This document shows positions 6,057-47,738 of a stretch of 64,000 bases of DNA, piece by piece. Origin of the DNA: an uncultured Candidatus Saccharibacteria bacterium (lineage in GTDB: Bacteria > Patescibacteriota > Minisyncoccia > UBA6257 > 2-01-FULL-56-20); NCBI GenBank assembly GCA_965231155.1, contig OZ246418.1, positions 302,850 through 366,849 of the forward strand, given 5' to 3'. The notes under the pieces were generated by a model that did not search any database, was not told the DNA's origin, and saw only the letters and a program-made list of their open reading frames with translations. The first letter of the stretch is position 1. Each line of letters opens with the position of its first letter. The position numbers and the translations under genes are program-made.

Positions 6057-7118
6057 ATGTCATCCTTCTTAACAATACTCATCACTCTGACTTTTTTATC
6101 TCCGTTGGTAGTATTTGGTGCAGACTACGAACTCCCCGCTCGTACCGCCTCAGAGACACTGACGCTACTGACTGGAGCCAGTCCAGCACGGGCGGTGAGT
6201 GATCTTTATAATTTTGCCTTAGGCATAGGTGCAATTGCTGCCTTTGGGTTAATCGTCTACTCAGCCCTCCAATACACCACCACAGATAGTCCGGGGAAGA
6301 GACAGGAGGCGCAGGGGAGAATCTTCCAGTCTCTATTAGGTTTGCTTCTTCTTATTGGTGCAACCTTGGTGTTGAGGTTTATTAATCCTGATCTTCCCAA
6401 CCTCAAGAATCCTGAAGCTCCGCAGTTGGAGGCGATACAGCTGGATACCACGTCTGAATCCTACTGGGTTCTCCAGAAATGCCCGGCGCTTCTACAAGAT
6501 TGCTCAAACGACCTCTCGTACGCTTTGGCTAGTGATCGTGGAGAATACAGTTCGAGAGTTTTGTGCGCTGAAGCAGGTAGTAGTACTATTGGTGGTACTG
6601 AACCAGGCTGGTGGCGATGTGTCGAGAGAACAAGGGATACTTCGGGCCTTGGCGGTACAGCGGGACCAGGATGCGAACCTATCCCTAACCCTGGAGTAGG
6701 CTCTGTCCAGTACATAGAGGAAAAGTTAGCAGGCACGCCCTATGCTGGTTGTTTCGGAGATAAGATTGCAAAAGCTTCAGGAATCATTGGCATAGAAAGT
6801 GGCGGGCAAGAAACTATTGAGAGTCGAACTGACAAGTGCAATCCAGCGCCCCCACGCAGTGTTTCTATTGGATTGTTTCAGATTAATCTCAGCGCTCACC
6901 ACCTTGGTTCTTTGCAATGTGCAAATAAGGCTATCCGTGGACAACTCCGAACAAGTCCAAACGACTGCACTATTATTGACGAGGTCCAGTATGGGCTCTG
7001 TCTGGCCGAGGCGAAAAAAGCCACACCAAATATTATTGAAGCTTGCAAGACTTTTAGAATGAAGAATAATTCCTTTCAGCTCTGGGGACCACAAACCAAG
7101 GAGAAGTGTGGAATTTAG
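6057..7118 (+). CDS. Secreted fusion protein with three parts: signal peptide, a two-helix pilin-like module, and a Cys-rich linker leading to a lytic-transglycosylase-like (lysozyme-fold) C-terminal domain
   Basis: N-terminal hydrophobic leader. A 104-aa module (YELPARTASE...APQLEAI) is identical to the paralog at 8319. The C-terminus carries an SLT-like motif pair, IGIESGGQETIESRTD and SIGLFQINLSAHH (compare ES...GLMQ of family-1 lytic transglycosylases). Confidence 0.5.
   Translation: MSSFLTILITLTFLSPLVVFGADYELPARTASETLTLLTGASPARAVSDLYNFALGIGAIAAFGLIVYSALQYTTTDSPGKRQEAQGRIFQSLLGLLLLIGATLVLRFINPDLPNLKNPEAPQLEAIQLDTTSESYWVLQKCPALLQDCSNDLSYALASDRGEYSSRVLCAEAGSSTIGGTEPGWWRCVERTRDTSGLGGTAGPGCEPIPNPGVGSVQYIEEKLAGTPYAGCFGDKIAKASGIIGIESGGQETIESRTDKCNPAPPRSVSIGLFQINLSAHHLGSLQCANKAIRGQLRTSPNDCTIIDEVQYGLCLAEAKKATPNIIEACKTFRMKNNSFQLWGPQTKEKCGI
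6126..6437 (+). repeat. Copy 1 of a 312-bp perfect direct repeat (pilin-like module coding sequence)
   Basis: 100% identical to 8373..8684 by direct comparison of the sequence. Flanking bases differ on both sides. Confidence 0.9.
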
Positions 7119-7150
7119 CTCTTATACCATTTGCGGTATAATACAGTGGT

Positions 7151-7639
7151 ATGAGAAAACAAGTTATCACTCTTGTGGTTATCATTGCCATTTGTCTTGG
7201 TCTCCTTTTTTTCATCATCCAGTTTTCTGAAAAACCAACTAATAACGTTTCTGATGTCGACGATCTCTCTGTTTTAGGAGATCGACCGAATCAAGACGTG
7301 CCAACCGGAAAGACCTTTATAATCCCTACAGAACAAGGCGATGTGATGGTAAAAAACTTTTTCAAAACTGGCCAACCCCTCAAAGGAGAGGAACCCGGGG
7401 TTCTCATAGAAGAAACTCCCGATTACACGATACTTTTTTATACGAAACAAAAAGAGGTGCTTATCTCCCTCACATCAAAACCAGTAATAACCGCGAAACA
7501 GAAAGCCGAAGAAGCCCTTCTTCGTCTTTTGGGCACATCCCAAGAAGATGCTTGCAAACTATTCTCTTCTGTCCGCACCACCGTCTATGTCGATCCAGAC
7601 TTGGCAGGTAGAGAACTTGGGTTAAGTTTCTGTAAATAA
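7151..7639 (+). CDS. Membrane-anchored hypothetical protein (N-terminal TM helix plus ~130-aa domain); possible VirB8-like position
   Basis: N-terminal helix ITLVVIIAICLGLLFFII. In the same strand and array as the T4SS genes. No motif recognised. Confidence 0.3.
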   Translation: MRKQVITLVVIIAICLGLLFFIIQFSEKPTNNVSDVDDLSVLGDRPNQDVPTGKTFIIPTEQGDVMVKNFFKTGQPLKGEEPGVLIEETPDYTILFYTKQKEVLISLTSKPVITAKQKAEEALLRLLGTSQEDACKLFSSVRTTVYVDPDLAGRELGLSFCK

Positions 7640-7644
7640 TAACC

Positions 7645-8322
7645 ATGAAAAAACTTCTCGCTATCTTCACTCTCGTCTTAGCTCTCTCCTTCCAAAGAAC
7701 CGAAGCTGCTGCACCAACCATGTTCCTGACCTGGAGAACGAACACCTATACTCCGAAAGACTATCCCGGAAAGGCCTTGGTTACTCCCGGATCGAATGTC
7801 ATTTTTTCTATAGAAGTACTGCAAGATGGAAAAATTCTCCCTCTAAAGACCATGATGATCCGTTGGTATGTGCAAGGACATCTTTATAAGAGTGGCCTTG
7901 GTCTTCAGTCATTTAATACATCCGCCAAGGTTCTCTCTGGAAATGATCTGAAAGTACGCGTAGAGATTCCGGACCTCCCAGGAGGCCCTCTTTCTAAAAC
8001 TATGCTTCTTCGAGTAACCGATCCAAAAGTGGTTATCGAAGCACCCTTCCCTGGTCTTATAACTCCAATCAAAGATTTCTTCGTCAAAGCAACACCCTAC
8101 TTTTTTTCCGTCCCTTCTGAAAAAAATCTGTCCTATCGCTGGACGGTCAATGGTAATGTCTTGCCCGAAGGATCGGATCCCCAACTAGTTTCTATAACCG
8201 CCAAGAATCTTCGTCAGTCAACCATTCGAACGCTTTCTTTCCAGATATCAGTAAAGAATCCTAATGAGGACTTCGACCAAACCGATGCCATTAAAACAAT
8301 AACCATTAAGGACACGCCATGA
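7645..8322 (+). CDS. Secreted hypothetical protein
   Basis: Signal peptide MKKLLAIFTLVLALSFQRTEAAAP. Its stop overlaps the start of the next gene (ATGA), suggesting translational coupling. Confidence 0.35.
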   Translation: MKKLLAIFTLVLALSFQRTEAAAPTMFLTWRTNTYTPKDYPGKALVTPGSNVIFSIEVLQDGKILPLKTMMIRWYVQGHLYKSGLGLQSFNTSAKVLSGNDLKVRVEIPDLPGGPLSKTMLLRVTDPKVVIEAPFPGLITPIKDFFVKATPYFFSVPSEKNLSYRWTVNGNVLPEGSDPQLVSITAKNLRQSTIRTLSFQISVKNPNEDFDQTDAIKTITIKDTP

Positions 8323-9350
8323 TTTCTACCTTACTTTCCTTTTTGGGCGCGACAAGGGTCTTTGCAGCTCCTTACGAACTCCCCGCTCGTACCGCCTCAG
8401 AGACACTGACGCTACTGACTGGAGCCAGTCCAGCACGGGCGGTGAGTGATCTTTATAATTTTGCCTTAGGCATAGGTGCAATTGCTGCCTTTGGGTTAAT
8501 CGTCTACTCAGCCCTCCAATACACCACCACAGATAGTCCGGGGAAGAGACAGGAGGCGCAGGGGAGAATCTTCCAGTCTCTATTAGGTTTGCTTCTTCTT
8601 ATTGGTGCAACCTTGGTGTTGAGGTTTATTAATCCTGATCTTCCCAACCTCAAGAATCCTGAAGCTCCGCAGTTGGAGGCGATAGGGGTAGCGAGTAGTA
8701 CCGCAGAGGGAGAAACCTCTTATTGGACAATTCAAGTCTGCCCCAAAAGAGAAGATTGTAGTGAAGAAGACTACGAAGACCTCGCCCCTAGAGATGAGGG
8801 CCATTATACCGACAGAAACGCGTGCCTAGGAATGAATACCGCCATTGGCGAAGAACCGGCTCGCTGGCGATGTGTCGAGAGATTTACTGGCCAACCAAGC
8901 GCCCTGGTCCCTATCGATGACAGTGTGGCTCAGCAAAGAGAGGAGGCGGTTCGCGCTCAACTTCGAGGATATGGAATTGAGGTCAACAACAAGGCCTGCG
9001 TCCCTTATACTGCCCGCTACCAGGACGTACCTGGAAGTTGCACAAATGTTGGAGGCCTACCAAACGGAGTTCTTTCAAAACTAGGAGTTCTTAATCCGCA
9101 GTTTCCAATAATCATTACTGGGGGGTCTGAAGCCGGGCATCTCTCTCACGGAGTAGGGGAGCCTTCGGTGGATATAAAACCTGCTCGTCGTAGCTCGCCA
9201 CCATCGGCAGGTTGGTGTGAACTTGAGAGGTTGGTTAAAGAATTAGGGATTGATGAGGCTCGGTCACAGTTTGAGTTACGCGGGGTGCCGCTCGATGCGG
9301 GCTGTAGAGCTAATCCGCCACCAGACCACTATCATGTACGCTTTGATTAA
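8319..9350 (+). CDS. Secreted fusion protein with three parts: signal peptide, a two-helix pilin-like module, and a Cys-rich linker leading to an M15/LAS-type zinc peptidase-like cell-wall hydrolase domain
   Basis: Same 104-aa module as 6057..7118. The C-terminus has SHGVGEPSVDI (compare SxHxxGxAxD) and DHYHVRF (compare EPWHxRY), the two zinc-ligand motifs of VanY/M15 D-Ala-D-Ala carboxypeptidase-like enzymes. Confidence 0.5.
   Translation: MISTLLSFLGATRVFAAPYELPARTASETLTLLTGASPARAVSDLYNFALGIGAIAAFGLIVYSALQYTTTDSPGKRQEAQGRIFQSLLGLLLLIGATLVLRFINPDLPNLKNPEAPQLEAIGVASSTAEGETSYWTIQVCPKREDCSEEDYEDLAPRDEGHYTDRNACLGMNTAIGEEPARWRCVERFTGQPSALVPIDDSVAQQREEAVRAQLRGYGIEVNNKACVPYTARYQDVPGSCTNVGGLPNGVLSKLGVLNPQFPIIITGGSEAGHLSHGVGEPSVDIKPARRSSPPSAGWCELERLVKELGIDEARSQFELRGVPLDAGCRANPPPDHYHVRFD
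8373..8684 (+). repeat. Copy 2 of the 312-bp perfect direct repeat
   Basis: Identical to 6126..6437. Confidence 0.9.
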
Positions 9351-9362
9351 TTATTCGAATCC

Positions 9363-10613
9363 ATGCTAAAACGTCTTTCATTCTTCCTTTCTATATTCTT
9401 GATTATTGGACTGGTTATCGCGATCGGCTGGTTTATCCGCTACCGAAATGCCTCACCCTCTCCAGATGCTACGACTACTCAGCCAGATGACATTCTTCCG
9501 CCTACTGGTCAAAATATCCGACCAGCCACCTCATCGCAGAACAGAAGCTCGAGCTCTCCTTCGATAATCGCTCCAGGAGAAAAACCGTTTGGTATGGTTG
9601 CCGACCAAGAAGTTGCCGCCTACTACCCCTACGCAGACGGCTCAGTCGCTTTCATCCAACCAAGCGGACAGGTGATAAAGATAAGTGGAACCGAGGGAGT
9701 AGTCTTAAGTTCTTTAAATATCTCCGACCTCAGTTATGCTGCCTTTTCTTATGACGGAAAAAGGATTGTGGCCGCTTTTGGAAATCCATTAAACCGCCAG
9801 TTAAGCGTTTTTGATTTAGAAAAAAAATCTTGGAATCCAATATTTGCTCGACCCCTTTCTGCACCTCTTTGGGCGCCTCGCGACTATCGAATCACATTTC
9901 TTACCGCAAATACAAATAATGACCAGATCATTACTGTTGTAGACACTCAACCAAATACCCCAAAAACACAGGAAATCCTCTCTCTTTCCGGACAGGACCT
10001 TGTTCTCTCCTGGAAAAATGATAATGAAATCTTTGTCTCGGAAAAAACAAGCGTCTTTTCTTTAGGAAGTCTTTTTTCTTTGGATATTAGGAAAAATACG
10101 CTTTCCTCACTTATTAAAGACTGGCCTGGCCTAGACTTTTTATGGGACACCACCTCTCAGGCTGGTGTCGCCTTCCAAGCAAATAAGAATAGCGTAGGAG
10201 GAACGATGAGTCTCCTGGGAGAGACGGGGATTGTCGCAAGAAAATTTTCCTTCACCACACTCCCTAAAGAAAAATGTTTCTTTGGTCCCGAGCCTACTCC
10301 ATTAACAACTACGAGTACATCCTCTTCGAGGACTCCACAGAAAAACCCTTCACCAAGAACAAGCCTCCTCTTCTGTGCTGTTCCGAAGAATGCTGACAGC
10401 TTCCTTTCTTCCTATCTACCGGACGCCTATTTCCAAAAAGAAATTATGACCGACGATAATTTGGTCGGAATCAATCTGGAAACGGGAGCGGTAACGGATC
10501 TTTCAAAACCAATAAATGAAGTGGTTGATGCAACTGATCTAAAAGCGAGCCGCACCTACATCTACTTTATAAACAGATATAACAACAAGCTCTACCGACT
10601 TATTCGCGCCTAA
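9363..10613 (+). CDS. Membrane-anchored hypothetical protein with a Ser/Thr-rich linker and a beta-rich (possibly propeller-like) ectodomain
   Basis: N-terminal TM helix FFLSIFLIIGLVIAIGWFI. Last gene of the plus-strand array. No catalytic motif. Confidence 0.35.
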   Translation: MLKRLSFFLSIFLIIGLVIAIGWFIRYRNASPSPDATTTQPDDILPPTGQNIRPATSSQNRSSSSPSIIAPGEKPFGMVADQEVAAYYPYADGSVAFIQPSGQVIKISGTEGVVLSSLNISDLSYAAFSYDGKRIVAAFGNPLNRQLSVFDLEKKSWNPIFARPLSAPLWAPRDYRITFLTANTNNDQIITVVDTQPNTPKTQEILSLSGQDLVLSWKNDNEIFVSEKTSVFSLGSLFSLDIRKNTLSSLIKDWPGLDFLWDTTSQAGVAFQANKNSVGGTMSLLGETGIVARKFSFTTLPKEKCFFGPEPTPLTTTSTSSSRTPQKNPSPRTSLLFCAVPKNADSFLSSYLPDAYFQKEIMTDDNLVGINLETGAVTDLSKPINEVVDATDLKASRTYIYFINRYNNKLYRLIRA

Positions 10614-10622
10614 CAGGAAACG

Positions 10623-11060
10623 TTAGTCGGTAATGGGCTTGATCATCACGTAGCGATCGCGACCGGCACCAAGGCTTTCCGTGGCCACCTCTGGGTGAAG
10701 GGCAAGGGCGGTGTGCACAAGACGACGTTCGTATGAGTTCATTGGGGGGAGTGAAAGAGCATTTTTTGTCGCCAACACCTTCTGGGCTGCTGCTCTAGCT
10801 AACTCAGTAATCAAGGCTTCTCGTTCCCGGCGATAGTTGTTGATGTCGAAGAATATTGGTTGAACGCTATTTTTCTTGGCAACCAACTGAATAATATGAT
10901 TGATGTCTTCAACGAGGCGAGCAATGCCCTCTTTATTCAAGGGTTCAAAATCATCGATCACGGCTGAGCCATGTCGAAACTCCTCGTTTACTTCTATCTT
11001 AAAAGACTTAAACCCAAGACCTTCAAGTAATTTTTTTACGAACACATCCCATTGTTCCAT
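10623..11060 (-). CDS. jag: Jag/KhpB-like R3H-domain RNA-binding protein
   Basis: C-terminal R3H-type motif MNSYERRLVHTALA...GAGRDRYVMIKP. Located downstream of yidC in the conserved rnpA-yidC-jag arrangement. Confidence 0.7.
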   Translation of the reverse strand: MEQWDVFVKKLLEGLGFKSFKIEVNEEFRHGSAVIDDFEPLNKEGIARLVEDINHIIQLVAKKNSVQPIFFDINNYRREREALITELARAAAQKVLATKNALSLPPMNSYERRLVHTALALHPEVATESLGAGRDRYVMIKPITD

Positions 11061-11250
11061 ACTGTTTGTGATACACGATTATTTAGTCGGAGTCAACTAT
11101 TCTCACTTTTGCTTTCTAGGACTGACGTAAAATTCTGACTGAGTTTTCGCCCTCCTCAAGCCGTCGCTTTCCGTAAGGTTCTAGAGAAAAAAGGTTCACG
11201 CTGTGTTTAAGATACTACACAAAGAAACCTATCTGTTTTGCCTACAAGAA

Positions 11251-11949
11251 TCAGACCTTGTCTGACCCTCCCTCCTTAAGTTGACGGTTTACCACAACCT
11301 GTTGGATGAGCGAAAATAGGTTAGAGGTAAGCAGGTAGAGCCAGACGGCTGAAGGGGAGGACCACAAAACCAAAACAATGATAATTGGGCCGATAATCGC
11401 CATCTGTTTACTCATTGCCGTAACATTCTTCTGGACCGAGAGACTCAACTGTGTCTGAATATACTGCAAAAGAGAAGCGATAATAATCAGTACTAAGCTC
11501 TGCGCCTGGAGATCAATGATGCCCAAGAAAGAGTGATTGAACGCAGTTGGAGCGTTGATAAAGGAGTAGAATTCTTTTGCATTCAACGTAGCCGGAGCGC
11601 CATGAAAGATCTGAAAAAGAGGGATAAGGATAAGAATTTGCAAAAAAAGAATGAAAAACATCGAGAAGGGGTTCACCTGATGCTTCTTATAGAGCTCCAT
11701 CTGGGCCCGTCCCTTATTCTCTATATCTCCTTGGTATTCTTTATCAATTTTTTCAAGCTCTGGGCGTAATGTCTGAATGACTGCCTGTTGCCGCATCGCC
11801 TTCTGGAAAAGTGGCAGGAAAATCACCCGGATAATGACGGTGAGCATAATGATCGCAATTCCCAAATCCTTAAAGGCAATTGACTGGTAGAGAAAAACCA
11901 GCGCGTTTATAAGCGGTTGGTAGAGAATAACGTGATAGAGATATCCCAT
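11251..11949 (-). CDS. yidC: YidC/Oxa1-family membrane protein insertase (short form)
   Basis: Polytopic 232-aa protein directly downstream of rnpA. Conserved synteny with rpmH-rnpA-yidC. Confidence 0.75.
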   Translation of the reverse strand: MGYLYHVILYQPLINALVFLYQSIAFKDLGIAIIMLTVIIRVIFLPLFQKAMRQQAVIQTLRPELEKIDKEYQGDIENKGRAQMELYKKHQVNPFSMFFILFLQILILIPLFQIFHGAPATLNAKEFYSFINAPTAFNHSFLGIIDLQAQSLVLIIIASLLQYIQTQLSLSVQKNVTAMSKQMAIIGPIIIVLVLWSSPSAVWLYLLTSNLFSLIQQVVVNRQLKEGGSDKV

Positions 11950-11958
11950 AAGTTTTTT

Positions 11959-12273
11959 TTAAAAGAGGGGGGTTAGCGTTTTTTCTAGACCCTCATTAAT
12001 CATTGCTTTCGTAGCTCCCTCAGCAGGCTTCTGAACAAGGATGAGAATGTCCTTTCCTTTGTTCGGCTTCTGCGCTAACCAAGAAACAACTATTCTTTTT
12101 AGATAGTGCCTTCTGGTAGCCTTCTTAACGGCACTTTTCCCAATAACTACGGCAAACCGGTTATACGGCCAACTATTATCAGAGGCCTTAACACTAAAGA
12201 ACGCGGAACGGAGGCTAAGAGAGCCTCTCTGAGGGAACTCTTTTGCCGGTAACCGCTGTCTTCTTGCCAGCAT
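11959..12273 (-). CDS. rnpA: Ribonuclease P protein component
   Basis: The C-terminal ~105 aa of the 184-aa track ORF ([13 protein letters not shown]...VVIGKSAVKKATRRHYLKRIV) matches RnpA. The start is set at the internal Met, which overlaps the rpmH stop (TAATG). Confidence 0.7.
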   Translation of the reverse strand: MLARRQRLPAKEFPQRGSLSLRSAFFSVKASDNSWPYNRFAVVIGKSAVKKATRRHYLKRIVVSWLAQKPNKGKDILILVQKPAEGATKAMINEGLEKTLTPLF

Positions 12274-12422
12274 TAAAATTTCCGCGCCTTGATGGTGATC
12301 TTCTTTCTGCCCTTTTGCCGACGTCGCTTCAAAACACTCTTTCCGGTAGCCGTTTTTTGACGGGCTCGGAAACCATGTGTCTTCTTCCGCTTCTTCTTTT
12401 TTGGTGAATATGTTTGTGACAT
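12273..12422 (-). CDS. rpmH: 50S ribosomal protein L34
   Basis: Hand translation of the minus strand gives [49 protein letters not shown], 49 aa. This is too short for the ORF track. It shows the characteristic KRTHGFRAR core. Confidence 0.75.
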
Positions 12423-12553
12423 GGTATGACCTTGAGTATAATGGCCTCACATAAGTTATGAACAGGCCATCAACATTTTTTTCTATTCTACTCTTTTGAC
12501 TCGCAGAAGACAAGTATTACAATAAGAGCGCTTCTTATAAACATTTTTAACCT

Positions 12554-13930
12554 ATGAACCTTGAACAGCTATGGCAACTGACGTTAGCAGAGATGGAAGT
12601 ACAACTTTCTCACGCTAACTTTGCAACATGGCTGAAGAAAAGCCAGCTTCTGGAGAATAAGGATGGAACATATTCAATTGGTCTCCCAAATACTTTTGCA
12701 AAAGTGTGGGTTGAGGAGAAATACCACAAAAATCTCTTGGGGATCATGCGTAATTTCGATGATTCCGTTCGTAAACTTGAGTTCACCGTACTCAAAGAAG
12801 ACTCCTCTCAGGAAAAGAAGGCGCCGACTCAAAAAACTCTTCGCCACGATACGACTCCAGTACAACCAATACAAAACAATCGGCTTGATTTTCGTGTTGA
12901 TCCCGACACTAATCTAAACCCTCGCTATACACTCTCTTCTTTTGTGGTTGGTTCCTCAAACGAGCTGGCCTTTGCCGCAGCCGAAGCCATTATTAAGTCA
13001 GTGGGAACAAAATATAATCCCTTCTTTATCTATGGCGGTGTCGGCGTGGGTAAAACTCATCTCATTCAGGCTATTGGGAATGAAATTTATACTCGCTACG
13101 AAAAGAAAATAAAACCTCGTTATGTTTCTTCTGAGAAATTCACTAGTGATGTGGTCTGGGCTATTCGAAACAAACGAATGGAGGATATTAAAAAGAAATA
13201 TCGAGATGTTGATGTGTTGATTATCGACGATATTCAGTTCATTGGTGGCAAGGAAAAAACTGAACAGGAGTTTTTCCATACCTTTAATGCACTCTATGAG
13301 GTTAACAAACAAATTATCATCTCCTCTGATCGACCACCACAATCAATTCCTACGCTCGAGGATCGCCTGCGCTCGCGTTTTGAGGGCGGCCTGATTGCTG
13401 ACATCACCTATCCAGAATATGAGCTTCGCCTGGCCATCGTCAGTGGAAAACTTCAGGAGCTTGGACACAGCCTCTCTCCTCAGGTGGTGGAACTTATCGC
13501 CAAAAAAGTGCGGAAGAATGTGCGCGAGCTTGAAGGAATCCTCACTAAAATAATATTTTATCAAGAGAGTAAGGGAGTAGAAGTAAGCGAAAAGCTTATC
13601 GAGGAGATTATCGATAATTCGATTAATAACTTCTCCCACAAAGTAAGCCCTGAACAAGTACTGAACGCTGTTGCCGAGTTTTTCAACATACAAATGAGCG
13701 ATCTTATTGGTCGCCGAAGACAAAAAGAAGTGGTCGAACCACGACAGATAACCATGTATCTACTTCGGGATATTCTTGGTCTTTCATACCCATACATTGG
13801 GGAAAAGATGGGGAGAGACCACACTACTGCAATTCACGCCTTCGAGAAGATTAACCATGAGGTGAACAAGAATTCTGTGCTCAACCAAAAAATTCTAATG
13901 ATTAAAGATTTAATTAATAAGAATCCATAA
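12554..13930 (+). CDS. dnaA: Chromosomal replication initiator DnaA
   Basis: Walker A GGVGVGKTHL, the AAA+ core, and a C-terminal DnaA-box binding helix-turn-helix. Divergent from rpmH and upstream of dnaN. Confidence 0.95.
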   Translation: MNLEQLWQLTLAEMEVQLSHANFATWLKKSQLLENKDGTYSIGLPNTFAKVWVEEKYHKNLLGIMRNFDDSVRKLEFTVLKEDSSQEKKAPTQKTLRHDTTPVQPIQNNRLDFRVDPDTNLNPRYTLSSFVVGSSNELAFAAAEAIIKSVGTKYNPFFIYGGVGVGKTHLIQAIGNEIYTRYEKKIKPRYVSSEKFTSDVVWAIRNKRMEDIKKKYRDVDVLIIDDIQFIGGKEKTEQEFFHTFNALYEVNKQIIISSDRPPQSIPTLEDRLRSRFEGGLIADITYPEYELRLAIVSGKLQELGHSLSPQVVELIAKKVRKNVRELEGILTKIIFYQESKGVEVSEKLIEEIIDNSINNFSHKVSPEQVLNAVAEFFNIQMSDLIGRRRQKEVVEPRQITMYLLRDILGLSYPYIGEKMGRDHTTAIHAFEKINHEVNKNSVLNQKILMIKDLINKNP

Positions 13931-19423: not shown

Positions 19424-21109
19424 TTGAACTACATGGTTCTTCAGCCAAGAGATATTCAACAGAAAGTTTCTCAGATTCGTCGCGAGGCGGAGGAGCGAGC
19501 GGCTCAGGCGCGTGCTAAGCAGGCCGGCGTTGGATATGTCGATGTTCGGAAATCGCCGACTTCTTTAGATGCGCTGAAACTTTTAACCGAAGAGCAGTCC
19601 AGAAAAGCTCAGGCGGTAGTCATTCAGAAAGGAAATGGCACAGCTGCCTTAGCCGCCTATGATCCGAAGAGTGAAGAGGTGGCGGGAGTTCTTAAGATTA
19701 TTGAAGAGAAGGGATTTAAGGTGAAACTTTTTACGGTTTCTGAAGACAGTCTTGAGGAGGTGTGGAAGATGTATCGTTTCGTGTCTCAGGAGGTAAAAGA
19801 TATTACAGGGAATGTTGAGGTTACGAAGGATAATTTTGAAGAGACCAAGGCGCGACTGAAGGATTTTCACGGAGTAGAAAAAGAGTTTGCCGATTTAGAT
19901 TATGACAATATTCCAACCACTAAGTTTTTTGAGTTGGTGCTGATTGGTGCGATTACTTCGCGTGCTTCAGATATTCACTTGGAGGCCGAAGAGAAGGGTG
20001 CGCGTTTTCGGTATCGTATCGATGGCGTGTTGCACGATGTTTCGGCCAAAGTGCCAACGAGAAATTATGAAAATATTGTGACGCGAGTGAAGTTGCTCTC
20101 GGGATTAAAGTTAAACATTAAAACAGAAACACAGGACGGACGTTTCACAATTCGTTTAGCTGAAAAAGATATTGAGATGCGCGTGTCGATTATTCCTTCT
20201 CAGTACGGAGAGACGATCGTGATGCGTATTTTGGATCCGGCTGGTATTAACGTGACTTTGGCTCAGCTTGGTTTTCGAGCAGATGATCTGGAGTTGGTAC
20301 AGCATGAGCTGAACCGCCCGAATGGACTGATTTTAAATACTGGCCCAACCGGTTCGGGAAAAACAACAACGCTGTATACTTTTTTGCGTACGGTCAGCAG
20401 CCCAGAGATGAAGGTAATTACTATTGAGGATCCGGTGGAGTATCACCTGCCGGGGATTTCTCAGACGCAGACCGATCCCAAGGCGGGATATACATTTGCC
20501 AGTGGTCTGAAGGCAATTCTCCGACAGGATCCGGATATAATTCTCGTTGGTGAAATTCGTGATTTAGAGACGGCGGAGATTGCTATGAACGCCTCGCTCA
20601 CCGGTCACTTGGTGTTTTCCACACTTCATACAAATGATGCCTTAGGAGCAGTGCCTCGTTTTGTGGACTTAGGTGTAAAACCAGCAATCTTGGGGCCGGG
20701 CTTGAGTTTGGTTATTGCGCAGCGTTTAGTTCGAAAGCTTTGTGAGAAGTGTAAAAAACTGACCACCCCAACCGAGGAGATGGTTCAGAAGATAAAAGTT
20801 TTTTTGGAGAAACTTCCAAAACGAGTAGCTCGCGAACCGTATCAGGATTTCAAGATTTATGAACCGGCTGGCTGTGACGCGTGTGGCAACTTTGGATACA
20901 AGGGTCGTGTGGGTATCTATGAGTTCTTTCGCAATACGCCAGAACTTCAGGAGCTAATCGCTCAAGGAGTTTCTGTGGTGGCGCTTCGTAAAGAAGCGGT
21001 CCGTCAGGAGATGATCTTTTTACAACAGGATGGGATTTTGAAAGTACTTCAGGGTATGACTACGTTTTCTGAAGTGGAGGACGTGACTGGCGAGATCGAG
21101 TGGACATAG
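19424..21109 (+). CDS. GspE/PilB-family secretion or type IV pilus assembly ATPase
   Basis: Walker A GPTGSGKTTTLYT. C-terminal tetracysteine (CEKCKK...CDACGN). GspE N-terminal-like domain. No pilC/pilM/pilin genes adjacent. Confidence 0.85.
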   Translation: MNYMVLQPRDIQQKVSQIRREAEERAAQARAKQAGVGYVDVRKSPTSLDALKLLTEEQSRKAQAVVIQKGNGTAALAAYDPKSEEVAGVLKIIEEKGFKVKLFTVSEDSLEEVWKMYRFVSQEVKDITGNVEVTKDNFEETKARLKDFHGVEKEFADLDYDNIPTTKFFELVLIGAITSRASDIHLEAEEKGARFRYRIDGVLHDVSAKVPTRNYENIVTRVKLLSGLKLNIKTETQDGRFTIRLAEKDIEMRVSIIPSQYGETIVMRILDPAGINVTLAQLGFRADDLELVQHELNRPNGLILNTGPTGSGKTTTLYTFLRTVSSPEMKVITIEDPVEYHLPGISQTQTDPKAGYTFASGLKAILRQDPDIILVGEIRDLETAEIAMNASLTGHLVFSTLHTNDALGAVPRFVDLGVKPAILGPGLSLVIAQRLVRKLCEKCKKLTTPTEEMVQKIKVFLEKLPKRVAREPYQDFKIYEPAGCDACGNFGYKGRVGIYEFFRNTPELQELIAQGVSVVALRKEAVRQEMIFLQQDGILKVLQGMTTFSEVEDVTGEIEWT

Positions 21110-37607: not shown

Positions 37608-37616
37608 TACTCTCGG

Positions 37617-37688: not shown

Positions 37689-37733
37689 TAGTTGTCCTAA
37701 TATACCTGTCTTTTTCAGTTTGCTCAATGAGTA

Positions 37734-37765: not shown

Positions 37766-37786
37766 AGGAAGTACTTTTCCTGAGAC

Positions 37787-38911: not shown

Positions 38912-38973
38912 GTCGTTTTTAGATGGGTTGTAGTATAGGCGAGCCCTCTTGATAAATCAAGGGCTCTCGCTTT

Positions 38974-39910: not shown

Positions 39911-39916
39911 TTTATT

Positions 39917-42364: not shown

Positions 42365-42434
42365 GTCAGTATTCTAGAGATCAACTGCGTGAACTAGAGA
42401 CACCTTTTTCAAGGGCTGGTATACTTAATGACAT

Positions 42435-43721
42435 ATGCAATTTTCTAAAAGACAGATCTTTTTAGTTATCTCTCTGATCGCGGGTATTGGAATAACAATT
42501 TTTCTTTTGTATTCCAGCATAAAAACTGAGGATACTGGCCCTGGTTCTATTAACGCAGCGAAAAGGACAAATAAGTTGGTGGTGTGGGGAGTGGATGATT
42601 CGAGCGCTTTCGCCACGATTAAAAAGAATTTTGAAGCTACCTATAAAGACGCGTCTGTAAATTATGTGCAACTTGATGAGGCGGTTATTCAGAGTCAGTT
42701 AGTGCAGGCACTGGCCAACAATCAAGGTCCGGATGTAATTATGATTAAAAACCGGACGCTGGCGAGACAGAAAAACTTTTTAGCACCAGCACCGGCCACG
42801 AAGATGAGCCTATCTCGATTCCGAGGTCTTTTTCCTACCGTAGCCGAACAGGATTTCACCGATTCAGGTCGTCAGATTTATGCTCTGCCTTTGTCTATTG
42901 ATACCCTGGCCTTAATTTACAACAAAGATTTTTTTGATCAGGCGAGAATTATTCAGCCTCCAGCGACGTGGACGGAGTTGGCGGATATCGTTCCTCAGTT
43001 GGTAAAACCGGGGAAGGGAGGACAGTTTGATCGATCAGCCGTTGCTCTTGGTGGTTCGAATAAGTCGATGACGAATGCCGGTGATGTCCTGACACTTCTT
43101 TTCATGCAGAGCGGCGCACGACTTGCTTCGGGTGAATTGGGAGTTGATGGACCTGGTCGTAAGGCTCTCAATTTCTATCTTCAGTTCTCTAATCCTCGAT
43201 CGTTGGCCTATACCTGGAATGATCTCCAGTCTAATGATCTTCAGAGTTTCGCTAACCTTCGAGCTGCTATGGTTATTGCGTACAAGAGACAGATCCCTTT
43301 TATCACCAATCAGAATAGTTTTGTGAACTATGGGATCGCATCAGTTCCTCAGTTGAGTACAGACAGAGTTGATTATGCAAATAGTTGGGGGCTGGCCGTT
43401 ACTCGAAATAGTCGCTTTTCGGCGAGAGCTTGGGATTTTGTAGTCTATGCAACAACGGTACAGCAGAATGCTCAGGCGTATAGCCAGGCGACAAAACTTC
43501 CTCCAGCGCTTCGAGAGCTTTTGGCCACCAACTATAACGATCCTGAACTTGGTGTGTTTGCTCAGCAGGCCCTCACCGCTCGTTCTTGGAACTCTCCCGA
43601 CGAAAAGCAAACGAGAGATATCTTCTCCGGCATGGTTGATTCTTATCTGACTGGACAGATGGATCAGGAGTCAGCGCTTGGTCGAGCACAAAATATACTG
43701 TCTCAAATATTTAGAAAATAA
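42435..43721 (+). CDS. ABC transporter substrate-binding protein (family 1, sugar-type)
   Basis: N-terminal TM/signal anchor, then KLVVWGVDDS...YVQLDEAVIQSQL, typical of extracellular solute-binding proteins. Confidence 0.75.
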   Translation: MQFSKRQIFLVISLIAGIGITIFLLYSSIKTEDTGPGSINAAKRTNKLVVWGVDDSSAFATIKKNFEATYKDASVNYVQLDEAVIQSQLVQALANNQGPDVIMIKNRTLARQKNFLAPAPATKMSLSRFRGLFPTVAEQDFTDSGRQIYALPLSIDTLALIYNKDFFDQARIIQPPATWTELADIVPQLVKPGKGGQFDRSAVALGGSNKSMTNAGDVLTLLFMQSGARLASGELGVDGPGRKALNFYLQFSNPRSLAYTWNDLQSNDLQSFANLRAAMVIAYKRQIPFITNQNSFVNYGIASVPQLSTDRVDYANSWGLAVTRNSRFSARAWDFVVYATTVQQNAQAYSQATKLPPALRELLATNYNDPELGVFAQQALTARSWNSPDEKQTRDIFSGMVDSYLTGQMDQESALGRAQNILSQIFRK

Positions 43722-43725
43722 GACT

Positions 43726-44238
43726 ATGTTCTTGAAGCCATACTTTCTTTTTGTCGGAGTTCTCTTGGTTTTTGTTCTAACTCTTTCCATTCCTCAGGCG
43801 GCGCTTGCTGCAGGCGCGAATCAGTGCAAAGTAGAAACTCCCCAGTTCTTACCAGGCGGATACTGGGGTCAGAATCCGCCACTCCTTCCTTGTGGAATAG
43901 GTCCGATTGAAACACGAGTGGATTGTTTGGAGTGTGGCCTTTGTGGTCTTCTGATGCTGGGGCAGCGAATAATCTACCTCATGTTGAGCTTTCTTTTCTT
44001 CGTGGTGGCACCTATTCGATTTATTTGGGGAGGGTTTCTTATTCTTGTCTCTCGTGGATCAAGCGAAACCGTCGCGCAGGGGAGAAAGATGATATATTAC
44101 ACCGTGATCGGCCTAATGATTGGTCTGGGAGCGTTTCTCATCGTCCAGACATTTCTCTGGCTTCTTGGTAATCTGGGTGGCGATCAGATCGGCTGGCCCG
44201 ATATAAAATGTCAACGGAACATTCGCCCATTGAGTTGA
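43726..44238 (+). CDS. Pilin-like paralog 1 (VirB2/TrbC-like T4SS pilin candidate)
   Basis: Signal peptide, Cys-rich N-terminal region, and a C-terminal two-helix module (LLMLGQRIIYLMLSFLFFVV...SRGSSETVAQGRKMIYYTVIGLMIGLGAFLIV) with the same pattern as paralogs 2-8. Start set at the internal Met (MFLKPYF). Confidence 0.6.
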   Translation: MFLKPYFLFVGVLLVFVLTLSIPQAALAAGANQCKVETPQFLPGGYWGQNPPLLPCGIGPIETRVDCLECGLCGLLMLGQRIIYLMLSFLFFVVAPIRFIWGGFLILVSRGSSETVAQGRKMIYYTVIGLMIGLGAFLIVQTFLWLLGNLGGDQIGWPDIKCQRNIRPLS

Positions 44239-44272
44239 GGGTGTTTTATTCTCTGAAAATTGATTACAATGT

Positions 44273-44677
44273 GTGCATAAAGAAAATATGAAAAGTTTAC
44301 TGCCTGGAGCCGGATTAGTTTTTCTTCTGATAGTAGTCGCAATGCCACTGCACGTTCTTGGAGTGGGACCAGGAGATCCCGGCGATGGCACGATTAGTCT
44401 CGCCGATCCCTTTAACTGTAGTACTGCTACTTCTGATGCCCCTTGCTTGATTCAGGTTCTAGGAGGAATCATCGGTCGCTTCAGTCAGATCGTGGTGCCT
44501 GTTCTTGTGGCAATGATTTTGTACGGAGGATTTCAGATGATGGCTGCCCGGGGCAGTACTGAGAAGTATGGTGCAGGAAAGAAGACTATCACTTACGCCG
44601 TCATTGGTTTTGCGGTCATCCTGGTCTCTCAGGGGATTGGATATATCTTGATTGATCTCCTTACGAGGCGAGCCTGA
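44273..44677 (+). CDS. Pilin-like paralog 2
   Basis: Signal peptide. C-terminal module VLGGIIGRFSQIVVPVLVAMILYGGFQMMAARGSTEKYGAGKKTITYAVIGFAVILV. Confidence 0.6.
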   Translation: MHKENMKSLLPGAGLVFLLIVVAMPLHVLGVGPGDPGDGTISLADPFNCSTATSDAPCLIQVLGGIIGRFSQIVVPVLVAMILYGGFQMMAARGSTEKYGAGKKTITYAVIGFAVILVSQGIGYILIDLLTRRA

Positions 44678-44760
44678 GGATTTTTGATTTTGCTTCTTGA
44701 TATGCTATACTCTTTAAACATATAAAAGGTCGGTATTTCCTTATATTATTTTCAATTGTA

Positions 44761-45144
44761 ATGACAAAGAACTTTAAAATTACCTTAGGAGCAGCTTCGA
44801 CAGCTTTGGTGTCTTTGGTGCCAATGGCTACTTCGTTTGCCTTCGTGACCGCTACTTTGCCAACGTTTACTCAGGTTGAGGCGCCAAAGGGTGGTAACGA
44901 GATTACTTCCTTCAATGGCATCTTGGCTATCTTAGTAACCATTTTGGGTTACGTCCAAGCTTTGTTCTGGATTGCCGCTGTGTTTACTGGTCTCTATGCC
45001 GCTTTCATGTACCTCACTGCTGGTGGTGAAGGAGAAAAAATCTCCAAAGCTAACCAGATGTTGATCTACACTGTTGTCGCGGTTATCGTGGCTGTTATCG
45101 CTTACTCGATCCCGGCGTTCGTGAAGACGACTATCCAGTCATAG
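44761..45144 (+). CDS. Pilin-like paralog 3
   Basis: C-terminal module YVQALFWIAAVFTGLYAAFMYLTAGGEGEKISKANQMLIYTVVAVIVAVIAYSIP. Confidence 0.6.
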   Translation: MTKNFKITLGAASTALVSLVPMATSFAFVTATLPTFTQVEAPKGGNEITSFNGILAILVTILGYVQALFWIAAVFTGLYAAFMYLTAGGEGEKISKANQMLIYTVVAVIVAVIAYSIPAFVKTTIQS

Positions 45145-45166
45145 TATCTTTAGAGATTATCTCTAC

Positions 45167-45195
45167 AAAAAAGACCCTTTTTGGGTCTTTTTTGT
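45167..45195 (+). terminator. Rho-independent terminator after pilin paralog 3
   Basis: aaaaaagaccc-ttttt-gggtct-tttttg. Confidence 0.6.
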
Positions 45196-45317
45196 TTCCA
45201 CTTTTTGATTCACAACGAAGCTCCTAACTGGCCTCCCATTATGCCTCTTGGATATGGGAGGGCAGTTAGGAGCGAGTCACTTGTTGCTTTTTTTGTCTTA
45301 CGGTAGAATAAATACTA

Positions 45318-45665
45318 ATGAGAACTTATGCGTCTATTCTGTTTTTCATAATTCTTGGTGCGCCGTTAGTTTCTTTTGCAGTTGCAGTACCCACTTGTGG
45401 TCCTAGTACTTCTCCTCTCTGCAATGTGGATGATGTCATTAGCTTAATTACCGCATTGGTGAATTATATGCAGGTCGTGTTTTGGATTTTGGCGGCAGCC
45501 TCAGGGCTCTATGCAGGGATACTGTATCTTCGGAGTGGTGGTAAGCCAGAAATGTTAAAGAGTGCCGAGAAACAACTTATCTATACAGTAGTGGCGGTCG
45601 CTGTAGCCGTCATGGCATACGGCATTCCTAAGCTTGTCGATAGTTTCTTACGTCTTCGCGCTTAG
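45318..45665 (+). CDS. Pilin-like paralog 4
   Basis: C-terminal module YMQVVFWILAAASGLYAGILYLRSGGKPEMLKSAEKQLIYTVVAVAVAVMAYGIP. Confidence 0.6.
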   Translation: MRTYASILFFIILGAPLVSFAVAVPTCGPSTSPLCNVDDVISLITALVNYMQVVFWILAAASGLYAGILYLRSGGKPEMLKSAEKQLIYTVVAVAVAVMAYGIPKLVDSFLRLRA

Positions 45666-45677
45666 CTTGATCTTTTT

Positions 45678-46229
45678 ATGAACCTACAAGAGGTCATCCA
45701 GGTAAAGAAAGTGTCCTCGGTAGTATCTTTCCCGATTGTTTTTTCTTTCATTTTTTTTATAATCTTTTCTTCCGGAGCTTTTCCAGTTGCCAGAGCAGAC
45801 TATCGTTGCGAAATTGCCGGTCCAAGCTTTGGCAATGTGTATGGGAGTGCAATTGATTGCTCAACGAGCTGTGGTGGTGTATGTGCGTCAGTTCCTGGTG
45901 GGGGAGGATCTTCGGGTGGTTCCGGGTTCACTCCGAGATATCCAACCTCTCGGTTGCCAGAAGGTGGTAATGCACCCGTAACAAATGCCGGACAAGTTTT
46001 GGATGTCGTAGTAAATATGTTGAACTTTGCGCAGGCCGTGTTTTGGGTGATGGCCGCCGGCTTTGGTCTCTATGGCGCCTACCTCTATCTTTTCTCGCAG
46101 GGAAACAAGGAGAGTGTTACTCAGGCCAAGAATATGATGGTGTATACTGTAGTAGCAGTGATGATTGCCATAATTTCGTACGGTATCCCTGCAATTATTA
46201 ATAATTTTGTGGCAATTAGTACTTCTTAA
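45678..46229 (+). CDS. Pilin-like paralog 5
   Basis: Cys-rich N-terminal region (ADYRCEIAG...CSTSCGGVCAS) plus C-terminal module FAQAVFWVMAAGFGLYGAYLYLFSQGNKESVTQAKNMMVYTVVAVMIAIISYGIP. Confidence 0.6.
   Translation: MNLQEVIQVKKVSSVVSFPIVFSFIFFIIFSSGAFPVARADYRCEIAGPSFGNVYGSAIDCSTSCGGVCASVPGGGGSSGGSGFTPRYPTSRLPEGGNAPVTNAGQVLDVVVNMLNFAQAVFWVMAAGFGLYGAYLYLFSQGNKESVTQAKNMMVYTVVAVMIAIISYGIPAIINNFVAISTS
46053..46136 (+). repeat. 84-bp identical tract, copy 1 (inside pilin paralog 5)
   Basis: Identical to 46444..46527 by direct comparison; encodes AAGFGLYGAYLYLFSQGNKESVTQAKNM. Confidence 0.85.
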
Positions 46230-46230
46230 T

Positions 46231-46620
46231 ATGAAAAATTATTATAAATTAGTCGGTTTCTTGGGAGGAGTTGTTTCTTTGGGTGGTGTTTTCGTGAGTG
46301 CCACAACGGTTCAAGCAGTTTGGAATCAGTATCCAACGTTTAGCGATCCACCGAGAGGGAATGCGCCGATTACCAGCGTCAATGATTCTTTGAATATTAT
46401 TGTGAATATTATCGACTTTGCGCAGGTTGCGTTTTTCATTCTCGCCGCCGGCTTTGGTCTCTATGGCGCCTACCTCTATCTTTTCTCGCAGGGAAACAAG
46501 GAGAGTGTTACTCAGGCCAAGAATATGTTTATTTATATGGCCGTTGCCATCTTTGTGGCTATTATTGCCTATGGAATCCCTTCTATCGTTGTAAACTTTG
46601 TAGACATAAGTATTTCTTAA
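46231..46620 (+). CDS. Pilin-like paralog 6
   Basis: The track ORF starts at 46207 and overlaps paralog 5, so the start is taken at MKNYYKLV just after that gene's stop. The C-terminal module is nearly identical to paralog 5. Confidence 0.55.
   Translation: MKNYYKLVGFLGGVVSLGGVFVSATTVQAVWNQYPTFSDPPRGNAPITSVNDSLNIIVNIIDFAQVAFFILAAGFGLYGAYLYLFSQGNKESVTQAKNMFIYMAVAIFVAIIAYGIPSIVVNFVDISIS
46444..46527 (+). repeat. 84-bp identical tract, copy 2 (inside pilin paralog 6)
   Basis: Identical to 46053..46136. Confidence 0.85.
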
Positions 46621-46623
46621 ATC

Positions 46624-47220
46624 ATGATACTCAAACAAGAGATTCGTCTAATAGTTTGTGGAGTATTCCTTTCTTTTGCTTTTTTAGTTTTCCTGGGAGT
46701 AACTGCCCCTCAACTAGCCCGAGCCGATTTTGTGTGTGAGGCGTATGGTACTCGAGTAAGCGATGAGGTTGCTTGTAATCACGACTGTCCAGATGCTTGT
46801 GTGCCAGTCGGTCGTTCTGGAGGAAGTGTGGCAACTCCTCCTTCATCAGCACCAGCATCGACGCCAGCACCTTCTCGAACTCCTTCAAGGACTGCGCCGG
46901 GAGTGAATCGTTTTGCCAATGAAAATACCCCATACCCTCATAATGTTGCCGACCAGATTCCTCGAGGGGGCCCAATTAGTGATGTGGATAGTTTTTTGTA
47001 TATTCTTACGGCGATTATTGAGTTTGCGGAAGCAATATTTTGGATTCTCGCCGTTGGCTTCGGTCTCTATGGCGCCTATCTGTATCTCTTCTCTCAGGGA
47101 AATTCAGAAAAGGCGGGGCAGGCCAGGAAGATATTTATATATGCAGCCATTGCTTCACTTTTAGCCATTGTGTCGTACGGCATTCCTGGTCTTGTTGAAA
47201 GTTTTGTCTTAGGATATTAA
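46624..47220 (+). CDS. Pilin-like paralog 7
   Basis: Cys-rich N-terminal region (ADFVCEAYG...CNHDCPDACVP), a Pro/Ser/Thr linker, and C-terminal module FAEAIFWILAVGFGLYGAYLYLFSQGNSEKAGQARKIFIYAAIASLLAIVSYGIP. Confidence 0.6.
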   Translation: MILKQEIRLIVCGVFLSFAFLVFLGVTAPQLARADFVCEAYGTRVSDEVACNHDCPDACVPVGRSGGSVATPPSSAPASTPAPSRTPSRTAPGVNRFANENTPYPHNVADQIPRGGPISDVDSFLYILTAIIEFAEAIFWILAVGFGLYGAYLYLFSQGNSEKAGQARKIFIYAAIASLLAIVSYGIPGLVESFVLGY

Positions 47221-47738
47221 TGCAAACTATGAATATTTTTAAAAGAATAGGACTGTCGGTTTCTTTGCTTTTGATTGTTATTACGACATTTGCGCCAATA
47301 TCTGCAGGGGCTATTTCTCGTTCTCGTCCGGGAGAGAGTCGAGTTTGTTTTGGGGTGGGTAATACGATAATCGATCTGAGCGGTCTTCCTTGTTTTGCGG
47401 GAATCTGTCTTCAGGCTGATCTTGAAGATGGTTGTCGAAGACTTGGTGGAACGTATGGAGTGATGCCTCAGTATACCGGTCCAGCGAGAACCAATGCGCC
47501 AGTTCAAGACGTCAATGATTTCCTTCAGATTCTTACCGACCTGGTGAGACTTGCCCAGATGGTCTTTTGGATTTTTGCAGTCGGCTTTGGTCTCTATGCT
47601 GCCTATCTTTATCTCTTTTCTGGAGGGAGTAAGGAGAGTGTTAGCCAGGCGCACAAGATGTTGATTTATACTGCCGTGGCATCATTAGTGGCAATTCTTG
47701 CGTACGGTATTCCGGGAATCATCGACAGCTTCTTCTAA
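47220..47738 (+). CDS. Pilin-like paralog 8
   Basis: C-terminal module LAQMVFWIFAVGFGLYAAYLYLFSGGSKESVSQAHKMLIYTAVASLVAILAYGIP. Confidence 0.6.
   Translation: MQTMNIFKRIGLSVSLLLIVITTFAPISAGAISRSRPGESRVCFGVGNTIIDLSGLPCFAGICLQADLEDGCRRLGGTYGVMPQYTGPARTNAPVQDVNDFLQILTDLVRLAQMVFWIFAVGFGLYAAYLYLFSGGSKESVSQAHKMLIYTAVASLVAILAYGIPGIIDSFF

Follow-up and report, generated by a model that had tools for sequence, protein, structure and literature searches.

Predicted type IV secretion pilin modules in two hydrolase fusions and a distant gene array of a Candidatus Saccharibacteria bacterium

Two groups of genes in the genome of an uncultured Candidatus Saccharibacteria bacterium raise the question of whether they encode variants of one pilin, and whether these work for one machine. 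In the 64,000-nucleotide stretch analysed here (contig OZ246418.1 of assembly GCA_965231155.1, positions 302,850 to 366,849; below, the window), the genes hydA and hydB lie beside a locus for a VirB4-type ATPase of a type IV secretion system (T4SS), and each joins a pair of hydrophobic helices to a predicted peptidoglycan hydrolase. An array of eight small genes with similar helix pairs follows at a distance of about 34 kb. To judge from their sequences, all ten modules are VirB2-like T4SS pilins of the Pfam family PF18895 and form two subfamilies, named here locus (N-type) and array pilins. We further propose, with a probability of roughly 0.7, that the locus pilins with their enzyme cargo and the array pilins serve one VirB4/PrgI system. 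The ten genes and the repeat shared by hydA and hydB are the following; the N-family profile is described below.

6057-7118, + strand: hydA, 353 amino acids (aa); PF18895 30.7 bits (cut-off 26.6)
6126-6437, + strand: repeat copy 1, encoding a 104-aa pilin module; exact identity with 8373-8684, diverged flanks
8319-9350, + strand: hydB, 343 aa; PF18895 30.6 bits (cut-off 26.6)
8373-8684, + strand: repeat copy 2, encoding a 104-aa pilin module; exact identity with 6126-6437
43678-44238, + strand: array pilin 1 (likely start 43726), most divergent member, with a Cys-containing variable region; PF18895 19.0 bits, N-family profile 23.2, array profile 88 bits
44273-44677, + strand: array pilin 2; PF18895 40.3 bits (above 26.6), N-family profile 22.5
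44761-45144, + strand: array pilin 3; PF18895 11.2 bits, N-family profile 9.6 (shuffled maximum 6.3)
45318-45665, + strand: array pilin 4; PF18895 21.0 bits, N-family profile 15.5
45678-46229, + strand: array pilin 5, variable region rich in Cys and in Gly/Ser; PF18895 14.7 bits, N-family profile 19.5
46207-46620, + strand: array pilin 6 (likely start 46231); PF18895 22.8 bits, N-family profile 9.5 for the whole protein and 11.7 for the best domain
46624-47220, + strand: array pilin 7, variable region rich in Cys and in Pro/Ser/Thr; PF18895 20.5 bits, N-family profile 15.7
47220-47738, + strand: array pilin 8; PF18895 16.9 bits, N-family profile 12.5

All ten proteins match PF18895 (T4SS_pilin) over the same profile positions. 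The gathering score of this family is 26.6 bits; hydA, hydB and array pilin 2 exceed it, and for five of the seven array proteins that stay below it PF18895 is the top-scoring Pfam family. Hydropathy predicts a signal-like segment and two hydrophobic helices in every one of the ten. The eight array genes, all on the + strand between 43678 and 47738, encode proteins of 115-198 aa, each consisting of a hydrophobic signal-like N-terminus, a variable region (Cys-rich in four of the eight) and a C-terminal hydrophobic helix pair, whose short polar loop is of the type S-x-G-x-x-E. The array proteins all align with one another at 25-50 % identity, and the module DNA of pilins 5 and 6 is 77 % identical. 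The two subfamilies differ in layout: in locus pilins the module lies near the N-terminus and the cargo comes after helix 2, whereas in array pilins a variable N-terminal region precedes a C-terminal module. The classical VirB2 family PF04956 (TrbC/VirB2) was matched by none of the ten window proteins at E <=1; among relatives, matches to PF04956 were found in three sets at frequencies of 4/94, 3/15 and 1/18.

A resemblance between hydrophobic helix pairs with a polar loop could also have arisen by convergence, and the simplest comparisons leave room for this reading. A phmmer search with the 104-aa module gave uninformative scores of 0-7 bits with the eight array proteins; hhalign, given the single N-module sequence and the eight array modules, reported E 0.013 and a probability of 3 %, with the helices in register; and Foldseek returned only non-specific helical hairpins for full-length hydB against the PDB (best pilus match 8dft, E 2.1). 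In order to obtain a richer profile, we searched 1.84 billion representative sequences exhaustively with the N-module by means of phmmer, which gave 5088 relatives at E <=1e-3, among them stand-alone pilins of 111-166 aa. The N-family profile was built from 166 modules of the best 156 proteins. Aligned by hhalign with the eight array modules, it gave a probability of 96.4 % and an E-value of 1.1e-9; the 67 aligned columns pair helix 1, the loop and helix 2 each with their counterpart in the other module type. The true alignment scored 53.0, compared with 13.9 for the reversed alignment (E 0.076) and at most 16.6 for 30 column shuffles (E >=0.021); when the two halves were swapped, only one helix was matched.

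Applied to single proteins, the N-family profile scored 9.5-23.2 bits on the array proteins versus at most 6.3 bits on 168 shuffled or reversed controls. Among the 283 six-frame open reading frames of the window its top hits were exactly hydA, hydB and the eight array genes, the next one reaching 6.9 bits. A stand-alone pilin of 124 aa (P0038) links both types, being found at 3.8e-15 with the N-module in the library-wide search and at about 1e-9 with array genes 5 and 6. Against convergence thus stand a profile-profile E-value of 1.1e-9 with controls at 0.02 or above, the shared Pfam positions, significant intermediate sequences and a profile which is exclusively specific within the window; we regard it as very improbable, and common descent of the two module types as very probable. 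The initial annotation, made from the letters of the window, had placed a shared 104-aa module at 6126 and 8373, had described the same order of helix 1, polar loop and helix 2 in both module types, and had named a profile-profile comparison as a check of their homology. The coordinates proved exact, the arrangement agrees with hydropathy and the aligned PF18895 positions, and the comparison came out positive with clean controls. Its "pilin-like superfamily" holds in the sense that there is one family; this family is not new, as it exists in Pfam as PF18895.

Covalent multimers of the module were seen among the relatives. Six proteins (P0012, P0010, P0016, P0020, P0014 and P0022) contain from 3 to about 18 tandem PF18895 modules per polypeptide, with no internal signal peptides; in P0012 three modules are followed by an SLT-like domain, and P0014 carries about 18 modules in 1775 aa. 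As read from gene calls, these are candidate "poly-pilins".

The module copies of hydA and hydB are much more alike than the genes which carry them. A DNA comparison shows that positions 6126-6437 and 8373-8684 are identical over 312 nucleotides with zero mismatches (100 %), while the adjoining 60-nucleotide flanks have an ungapped identity of only 40 % and 18 %. Copy 1 encodes residues 24-127 of hydA and copy 2 residues 19-122 of hydB. Overall, the two proteins are 73 % identical across 190 aa, without any relation between their C-terminal domains; elsewhere, the N-modules of hydA-type orthologues show 56-63 % identity. Because the perfect tract sits inside otherwise diverged genes, it is best read as the trace of an apparent recent gene conversion which homogenised the two pilin modules. 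A diverged Cys-rich linker follows in both genes (6438-6630 and 8685-8880; hydA aa 128-191, hydB aa 123-188). Its pattern, SYW..Q.CP..C...Y....G.Y....C.......W.C, recurs in the relatives P0002, P0005, P0011 and P0017, does not match known families, and was modelled by AlphaFold2 (AF2) at a confidence of 54-77.

What, then, do the two pilins carry? hydA consists of a predicted signal peptide, the pilin module (aa 45-109), the linker (aa 128-191) and a lysozyme-like or SLT-type domain (about 200-353) with the motifs GIES (E247) and, at 272, GLFQINL. This domain scores weakly with PF18896 (SLT_3), at 14-15 bits and below the 27-bit cut-off; its homologues at E-values of 1e-11 to 1e-52 (P0006, P0007, P0009, P0013 and P0015) themselves match PF18896 or SLT, and for P0007 the precomputed Pfam architecture is PF18895 plus PF18896. 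The hydA domain is predicted with good confidence to be a lysozyme-like muramidase or lytic transglycosylase.

In hydB, a predicted signal peptide, the pilin module (aa 40-104) and the Cys-rich linker precede a C-terminal domain of aa 188-343, whose candidate site comprises E271, H274, H277-x7-D285 and H337-x-H339. In 12 homologues E271, H274, H277, D285 and H337 are conserved, with H277, D285 and H337 invariant and H339 nearly so. AF2 modelled this domain at a predicted local distance difference test value (pLDDT) of 83 and a predicted template modelling score of 0.80, and the pilin module as a helical hairpin (helices 38-70 and 74-104, pLDDT 87-90). The best PDB structure match of the C-terminal domain is a weak one to VldE, an L,D-endopeptidase of the LAS group (E 0.06, probability 0.69); the zinc ligands of VldE, H-x6-D ... 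H-x-H, have the same pattern as those proposed for hydB. In BFVD, the domain matched an uncharacterised phage protein at E 1.7e-4, a phage protein annotated as GH19, and entries named "Sonic hedgehog" and Peptidase M15A. Fold matches and motif together point with moderate confidence to a LAS-type (Hedgehog/DD-peptidase-like) zinc peptidoglycan peptidase as the probable function. If the hairpin has VirB2-type topology, the C-terminal cargo of the locus pilins would be extracytoplasmic.

Such cargo is not confined to the two window proteins. Word-indexed homologue searches with hydA and hydB retrieved few relatives (9, 4 and 9 proteins). Of the 156 best module relatives in the protein library, 63 have a C-terminal extension of at least 100 residues; the recognisable domains among them are SLT_3 (8 cases), SLT (5), Peptidase_M15_4, VanY and Tlde1, which all act on peptidoglycan.

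The genes around hydA and hydB, which lie 0.9-3.1 kb downstream of VirB4, and the gene preceding the array are listed here.

2111-2635, + strand: PrgI/VirB3-like small membrane protein; PF12666 32.1 bits (cut-off 27)
2696-3454, + strand: conserved 252-aa protein (orf252), directly 5' of VirB4; weak PF11130 (TraC_F_IV) match
3457-5178, + strand: VirB4-type T4SS ATPase; PF19044 (TraG P-loop) 85.9 bits, PF12846 (AAA_10)
5182-6054, + strand: 290-aa membrane protein with an acidic tail, fast-evolving; no Pfam family
7151-7639, + strand: 162-aa secreted or anchored protein, lineage-specific; no Pfam match
7645-8322, + strand: 225-aa secreted protein (orf225), preceding the locus pilin; assigned by synteny
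9363-10613, + strand: 416-aa anchored protein (orf416), closing the T4SS block; assigned by synteny
12554-13930, + strand: dnaA; PF00308, PF08299, PF11638
42435-43721, + strand: orphan membrane-anchored solute-binding protein (SBP); PF01547 (SBP_bac_1) 87.7 bits

The initial annotation had called the neighbouring ATPase and PrgI from their translations and had taken the genes between the two loci for housekeeping genes. PF19044, PF12846 and PF12666 bear out the first two calls; the ATPase also scores 20.3 bits with PF03135 (CagE_TrbE_VirB), slightly under the 21-bit cut-off. With VirB4 and a PrgI/VirB3-like protein in one locus, the system falls into the monoderm, MPF-FATA-like class of T4SS, Patescibacteria clade. 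The window belongs to a Patescibacteria (Paceibacteria-like) chromosome, on which the T4SS of the lineage is encoded. The gene order in the window is PrgI, VirB4, the pilin-hydrolases and oriC with dnaA, followed farther on by gyrA, the SBP gene and the pilin array. The GC skew has its turning point at 12-14 kb, at the junction of jag, yidC and rnpA on the - strand with dnaA and dnaN on the + strand, and the T4SS locus therefore abuts oriC. The roughly 34 kb between the two loci are indeed made up of housekeeping genes (dnaA, dnaN, a class A penicillin-binding protein (PBP), ruvB, polA, a histidine kinase, fpg, gyrA and genes for RNase J-like and S1-domain proteins), and a PilB-type ATPase is encoded there as well.

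A genome scan with VirB4 yielded 80 related loci, all from Patescibacteria and mostly labelled Paceibacterota or Parcubacteria, whose VirB4 proteins are 45-94 % identical to that of the window, the closest one at 94 %. The VirB4/PrgI synteny is common to at least 70 Patescibacteria loci: PrgI homologues lie upstream of VirB4 in 72 of the related loci, and orf252 homologues were found in 76 of the 80, always between PrgI and VirB4. Downstream, orf225 homologues immediately precede an N-type pilin gene in 56 loci, orf416 homologues stand directly after the locus pilin and before jag/yidC/dnaA in 42, and dnaA follows the T4SS genes in 43, mostly in the same order as here. In dozens of genomes the full order PrgI, orf252, VirB4, orf225, N-type pilin, orf416, jag (-), yidC (-), dnaA recurs, and the pilin at this fixed position is always of the N-module type (E 1e-19 to 1e-36). 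By position, hydB is thus orthologous to a conserved core pilin, and its cargo is an enzyme.

Two members of the block are less widespread. The 290-aa protein has a sequence homologue only in the closest relative (L001) among the 80 related loci; a gap of about 0.8 kb between VirB4 and orf225 in the relatives could hold its equivalent. For the 162-aa gene, no homologue was found in any of the 80 loci. None of the 80 related genomes has hydA or the 162-aa gene in its syntenic block; the pair looks like an insertion specific to the lineage, placed between the genes for the 290-aa and 225-aa proteins. At 212-2050, 5' of PrgI, a 612-aa low-complexity protein rich in Pro, Ser, Thr and Lys is encoded. 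Pfam gives no match for it, and homologues occur in only three related loci; possibly it evolves fast and belongs to the cell surface or is associated with the T4SS.

The tails of the relatives' locus pilins range from nothing to several hundred variable residues, the longer ones being mostly Cys-rich. At least 90 residues follow the module in 21 of 55 N-type locus pilins. In 15 of the 55 there are at most 20; these plain pilins of 117-142 aa have highly conserved modules (E 1e-30 to 1e-36). No domains were detected in the C-terminal extensions of the relatives' locus pilins by Pfam. That N-type pilins persist without cargo at the conserved position argues for a role of the module independent of cargo. 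This finding bears on a plain alternative, namely that the hairpin of hydA and hydB is a mere membrane anchor and that both enzymes are VirB1- or PrgK-like hydrolases acting on the cell's own wall, which never polymerise or meet array pilins. PrgK of pCF10 and TraG of pIP501 are membrane-anchored Gram-positive T4SS hydrolases which act on the donor wall. In agreement with this alternative, hydA and hydB sit in the core locus, and the window encodes a class A PBP, that is, the cell has a wall of its own. A bare anchor, however, would have no reason to persist without cargo at the same position, and tandem concatenated modules as well as the perfect homogenisation of two copies suggest that contacts between modules matter. 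We hold the anchor explanation to be possible, if somewhat unlikely.

The array, too, has a conserved setting. A metagenome scan with four array modules gave 11 contigs, and in four long ones (L081, L082, L086 and L090) gyrA, the SBP gene and an array of 6-10 pilins occur in this order. As this order recurs in four contigs, the split arrangement is conserved in the lineage and is no accident of this genome; for the same reason the SBP may belong with the array. In the window, the SBP gene ends 4-5 bp 5' of the array, is possibly co-transcribed with it, and has no ABC permease nearby. A scan of the array for promoters and terminators found fewer sites than in shuffled sequences and was uninformative. 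Beyond the array, at 47821-50065 (- strand), lies a 2-kb segment with a GC content of 0.55, compared with about 0.45 elsewhere, which contains three genes including one for an SPFH/Band 7 protein (48255-49415). In L081, L085 and L086, too, the array is followed by homologues of these genes, so that the neighbourhood is conserved despite its odd GC content.

In other lineages the two pilin types are found close together. Array-type pilins lie at most 10 kb upstream of PrgI/VirB4 in three loci: L065, which has three of them and one N-type fusion, L066, and L075, which is labelled Saccharibacteria and has seven. In two further contigs, L083 and L089, an array of array-type pilins comes directly after an N-type fusion, which has 324 or 304 aa. 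A third case is known from S. epibionticum ML1, whose PF18895 array (SEML1_0014-0019) is located inside an essential T4SS cluster. The one-system reading is backed by each of these observations, because the arrays adjoin VirB4, N-type fusions head arrays, and a PF18895 array forms part of an essential T4SS cluster.

As a separate observation, a PilB/GspE-type (T2SSE) ATPase is encoded at 19424-21109 inside the housekeeping interval, and its orthologues in L083 (4058-5734) and L089 (1246-2916) lie about 2 kb from the N-type fusion that heads the array. Type IV (PilA-like) pilins served by this ATPase were considered as an identity for the array proteins and rejected on account of the Sec-type signals and the PF18895 matches.

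The array might still serve a structure other than that of VirB4, for instance an envelope layer or an adhesin built with the SBP or the PilB-type ATPase, so that two separate systems would be present. Its distance of 38 kb from VirB4, the gyrA/SBP position kept in four related contigs and the proximity to the PilB-type orthologue in L083 and L089 are in agreement with this idea. The array proteins, on the other hand, have by sequence Sec-type signals and not type IV prepilin leaders; array-type pilins adjoin VirB4 in L065, L066 and L075 and belong to the essential cluster of S. epibionticum; and pilin genes were found near virB4 in 1135 of 1948 assemblies (PMC12102498). Taken together, this renders two separate systems clearly improbable.

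Returning to the one-system reading, its proposed mechanism would run as follows. After Sec export and cleavage of the signal peptide, each module would insert into the membrane as a hairpin with both ends outside, from where the VirB4/PrgI machine would extract and assemble the modules. Array pilins would be the bulk subunits with variable surfaces, and the locus pilin would co-assemble with them or dock at the same site via its homologous hairpin. Docking would put a glycosidase (hydA) and a peptidase (hydB) where the structure must cross peptidoglycan. The wall attacked would certainly be that of the cell itself, which is also the target of VirB1, PrgK and TraG; the wall of the host bacterium is a possible second one. 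Through gene conversion, the two enzymes would continue to fit the same assembly partners. A bolder version, which we consider rather unlikely, is that the locus pilins polymerise into an "armed" pilus or conduit whose hairpin core mixes array pilins with subunits that bear the muramidase and the LAS peptidase on its outside, and which cuts the host wall on contact. If this were true, the job of the Patescibacteria T4SS would be to breach the host envelope for epibiotic feeding.

A number of points tell against one system or against parts of it. On the side of homology, these are the uninformative phmmer scores given above, the fact that seven of the eight array proteins (11.2-22.8 bits) stay under the PF18895 gathering score, and a narrow profile of the eight array sequences, which gave no match to hydA or hydB at E <0.1, so that the relation shows only when searched from the broader family. 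For the enzymes, they are the sub-threshold PF18896 score of hydA and, for the C-terminal domain of hydB, the negative outcome of Pfam, PDB sequence and PDB profile searches, the peptidase assignment being based on weak fold matches (PDB E 0.06) and the motif. The 312-nucleotide identity could in principle be an assembly artefact caused by collapse. As to the machinery, neither a coupling protein nor a relaxase was found among the open reading frames scanned, a search which was not exhaustive and covered 64 kb of the 808-kb contig, and no VirB6 was identified in the window. The home of the array beside gyrA and the SBP gene could mean independent regulation or a separate role, and we infer the functional tie of the two loci in this genome from their context in other lineages. 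Finally, we found no demonstration in the literature consulted of a filament made of PF18895 proteins. According to published work, most Patescibacteria T4SS are without coupling protein (VirD4) and relaxase, and reviews go no further than a "potential to elaborate conjugative pili".

A comparison with known systems shows which of these features are shared. In Patescibacteria, 441 arrays of 2-11 pilin genes and T4SS near dnaA have been reported (PMC12102498). The array described here resembles them in its Pfam family, in its tandem divergent paralogues (25-50 % identity here; reported mean 25 %), in the association with a monoderm-type VirB4/PrgI pair and in the closeness of the T4SS to dnaA. 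It differs in lying 38 kb from VirB4 in a conserved gyrA-SBP-array block, and the core locus differs in keeping a distinct pilin subfamily with enzymatic cargo. With VirB2/TrbC (PF04956) the modules have in common the signal peptide, two hydrophobic helices and a short polar loop, and some relatives cross-match PF04956; classical VirB2, however, is a short stand-alone protein of diderm systems, whereas the module of the window is combined with an N-terminal variable region of 60-100 aa or a C-terminal enzyme of 220 aa and belongs to a monoderm-type T4SS. Tandem amplification and diversification of T4SS pilins, read as surface variation, is also known from the VirB2 arrays of Bartonella and Anaplasma, which in contrast involve another pilin family, animal-cell hosts and diderm machinery.

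With regard to the hydrolases, the likeness to VirB1, PrgK and TraG lies in wall-degrading enzymes encoded in a T4SS locus, those of Gram-positive systems being bound to the membrane and uniting glycosidase with peptidase activity. Here, in contrast, a pilin module with homology to the pilins of the same system serves as the anchor, each of the two predicted activities has a protein to itself, and the peptidase is LAS-like and not of the CHAP type. The T4SS cluster of S. epibionticum contains, beside VirB4, the unfused proteins SEML1_0006 (two lysozyme-like domains and a cysteine proteinase) and SEML1_0007 (Hedgehog/DD-peptidase). This pair likewise places a lysozyme-like and a LAS-fold enzyme next to VirB4 and was reported to be essential for epibiotic growth; its members are large and have no PF18895 domain in the published table, in contrast to the small, pilin-fused hydA and hydB.

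Much of this background is in print: PF18895, pilin arrays and an oriC-proximal T4SS were published by Wang 2023 and Quinonero-Coronel 2025, as were the essential role of the arrays in S. epibionticum and the monoderm type of the T4SS. Since the homology as such is already captured by Pfam and two recent papers, its novelty is modest. In the literature consulted we found no description of pilin-hydrolase fusions (the Pfam architecture of P0007 aside), of the distinction between locus-type and array-type subfamilies, or of the conserved gyrA-SBP-array block. Less described, too, are the lysozyme-like or LAS-peptidase-like cargo on a conserved locus pilin and the apparent gene conversion of its two copies.

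We know of no account of what the Patescibacteria T4SS carries or by which route it passes through two cell walls; the system is essential for epibiotic growth in the only species in which this was tested. The arrangement described here indicates that the core locus has a conserved pilin subfamily of its own, which in some lineages is covalently joined to a predicted peptidoglycan glycosidase or peptidase. It also sets "locus" pilins apart from "array" pilins, two groups that current surveys treat as one under PF18895. The hypothesis we offer is that the pilin module may bring enzymes that cut the wall to the site of assembly or onto the filament.

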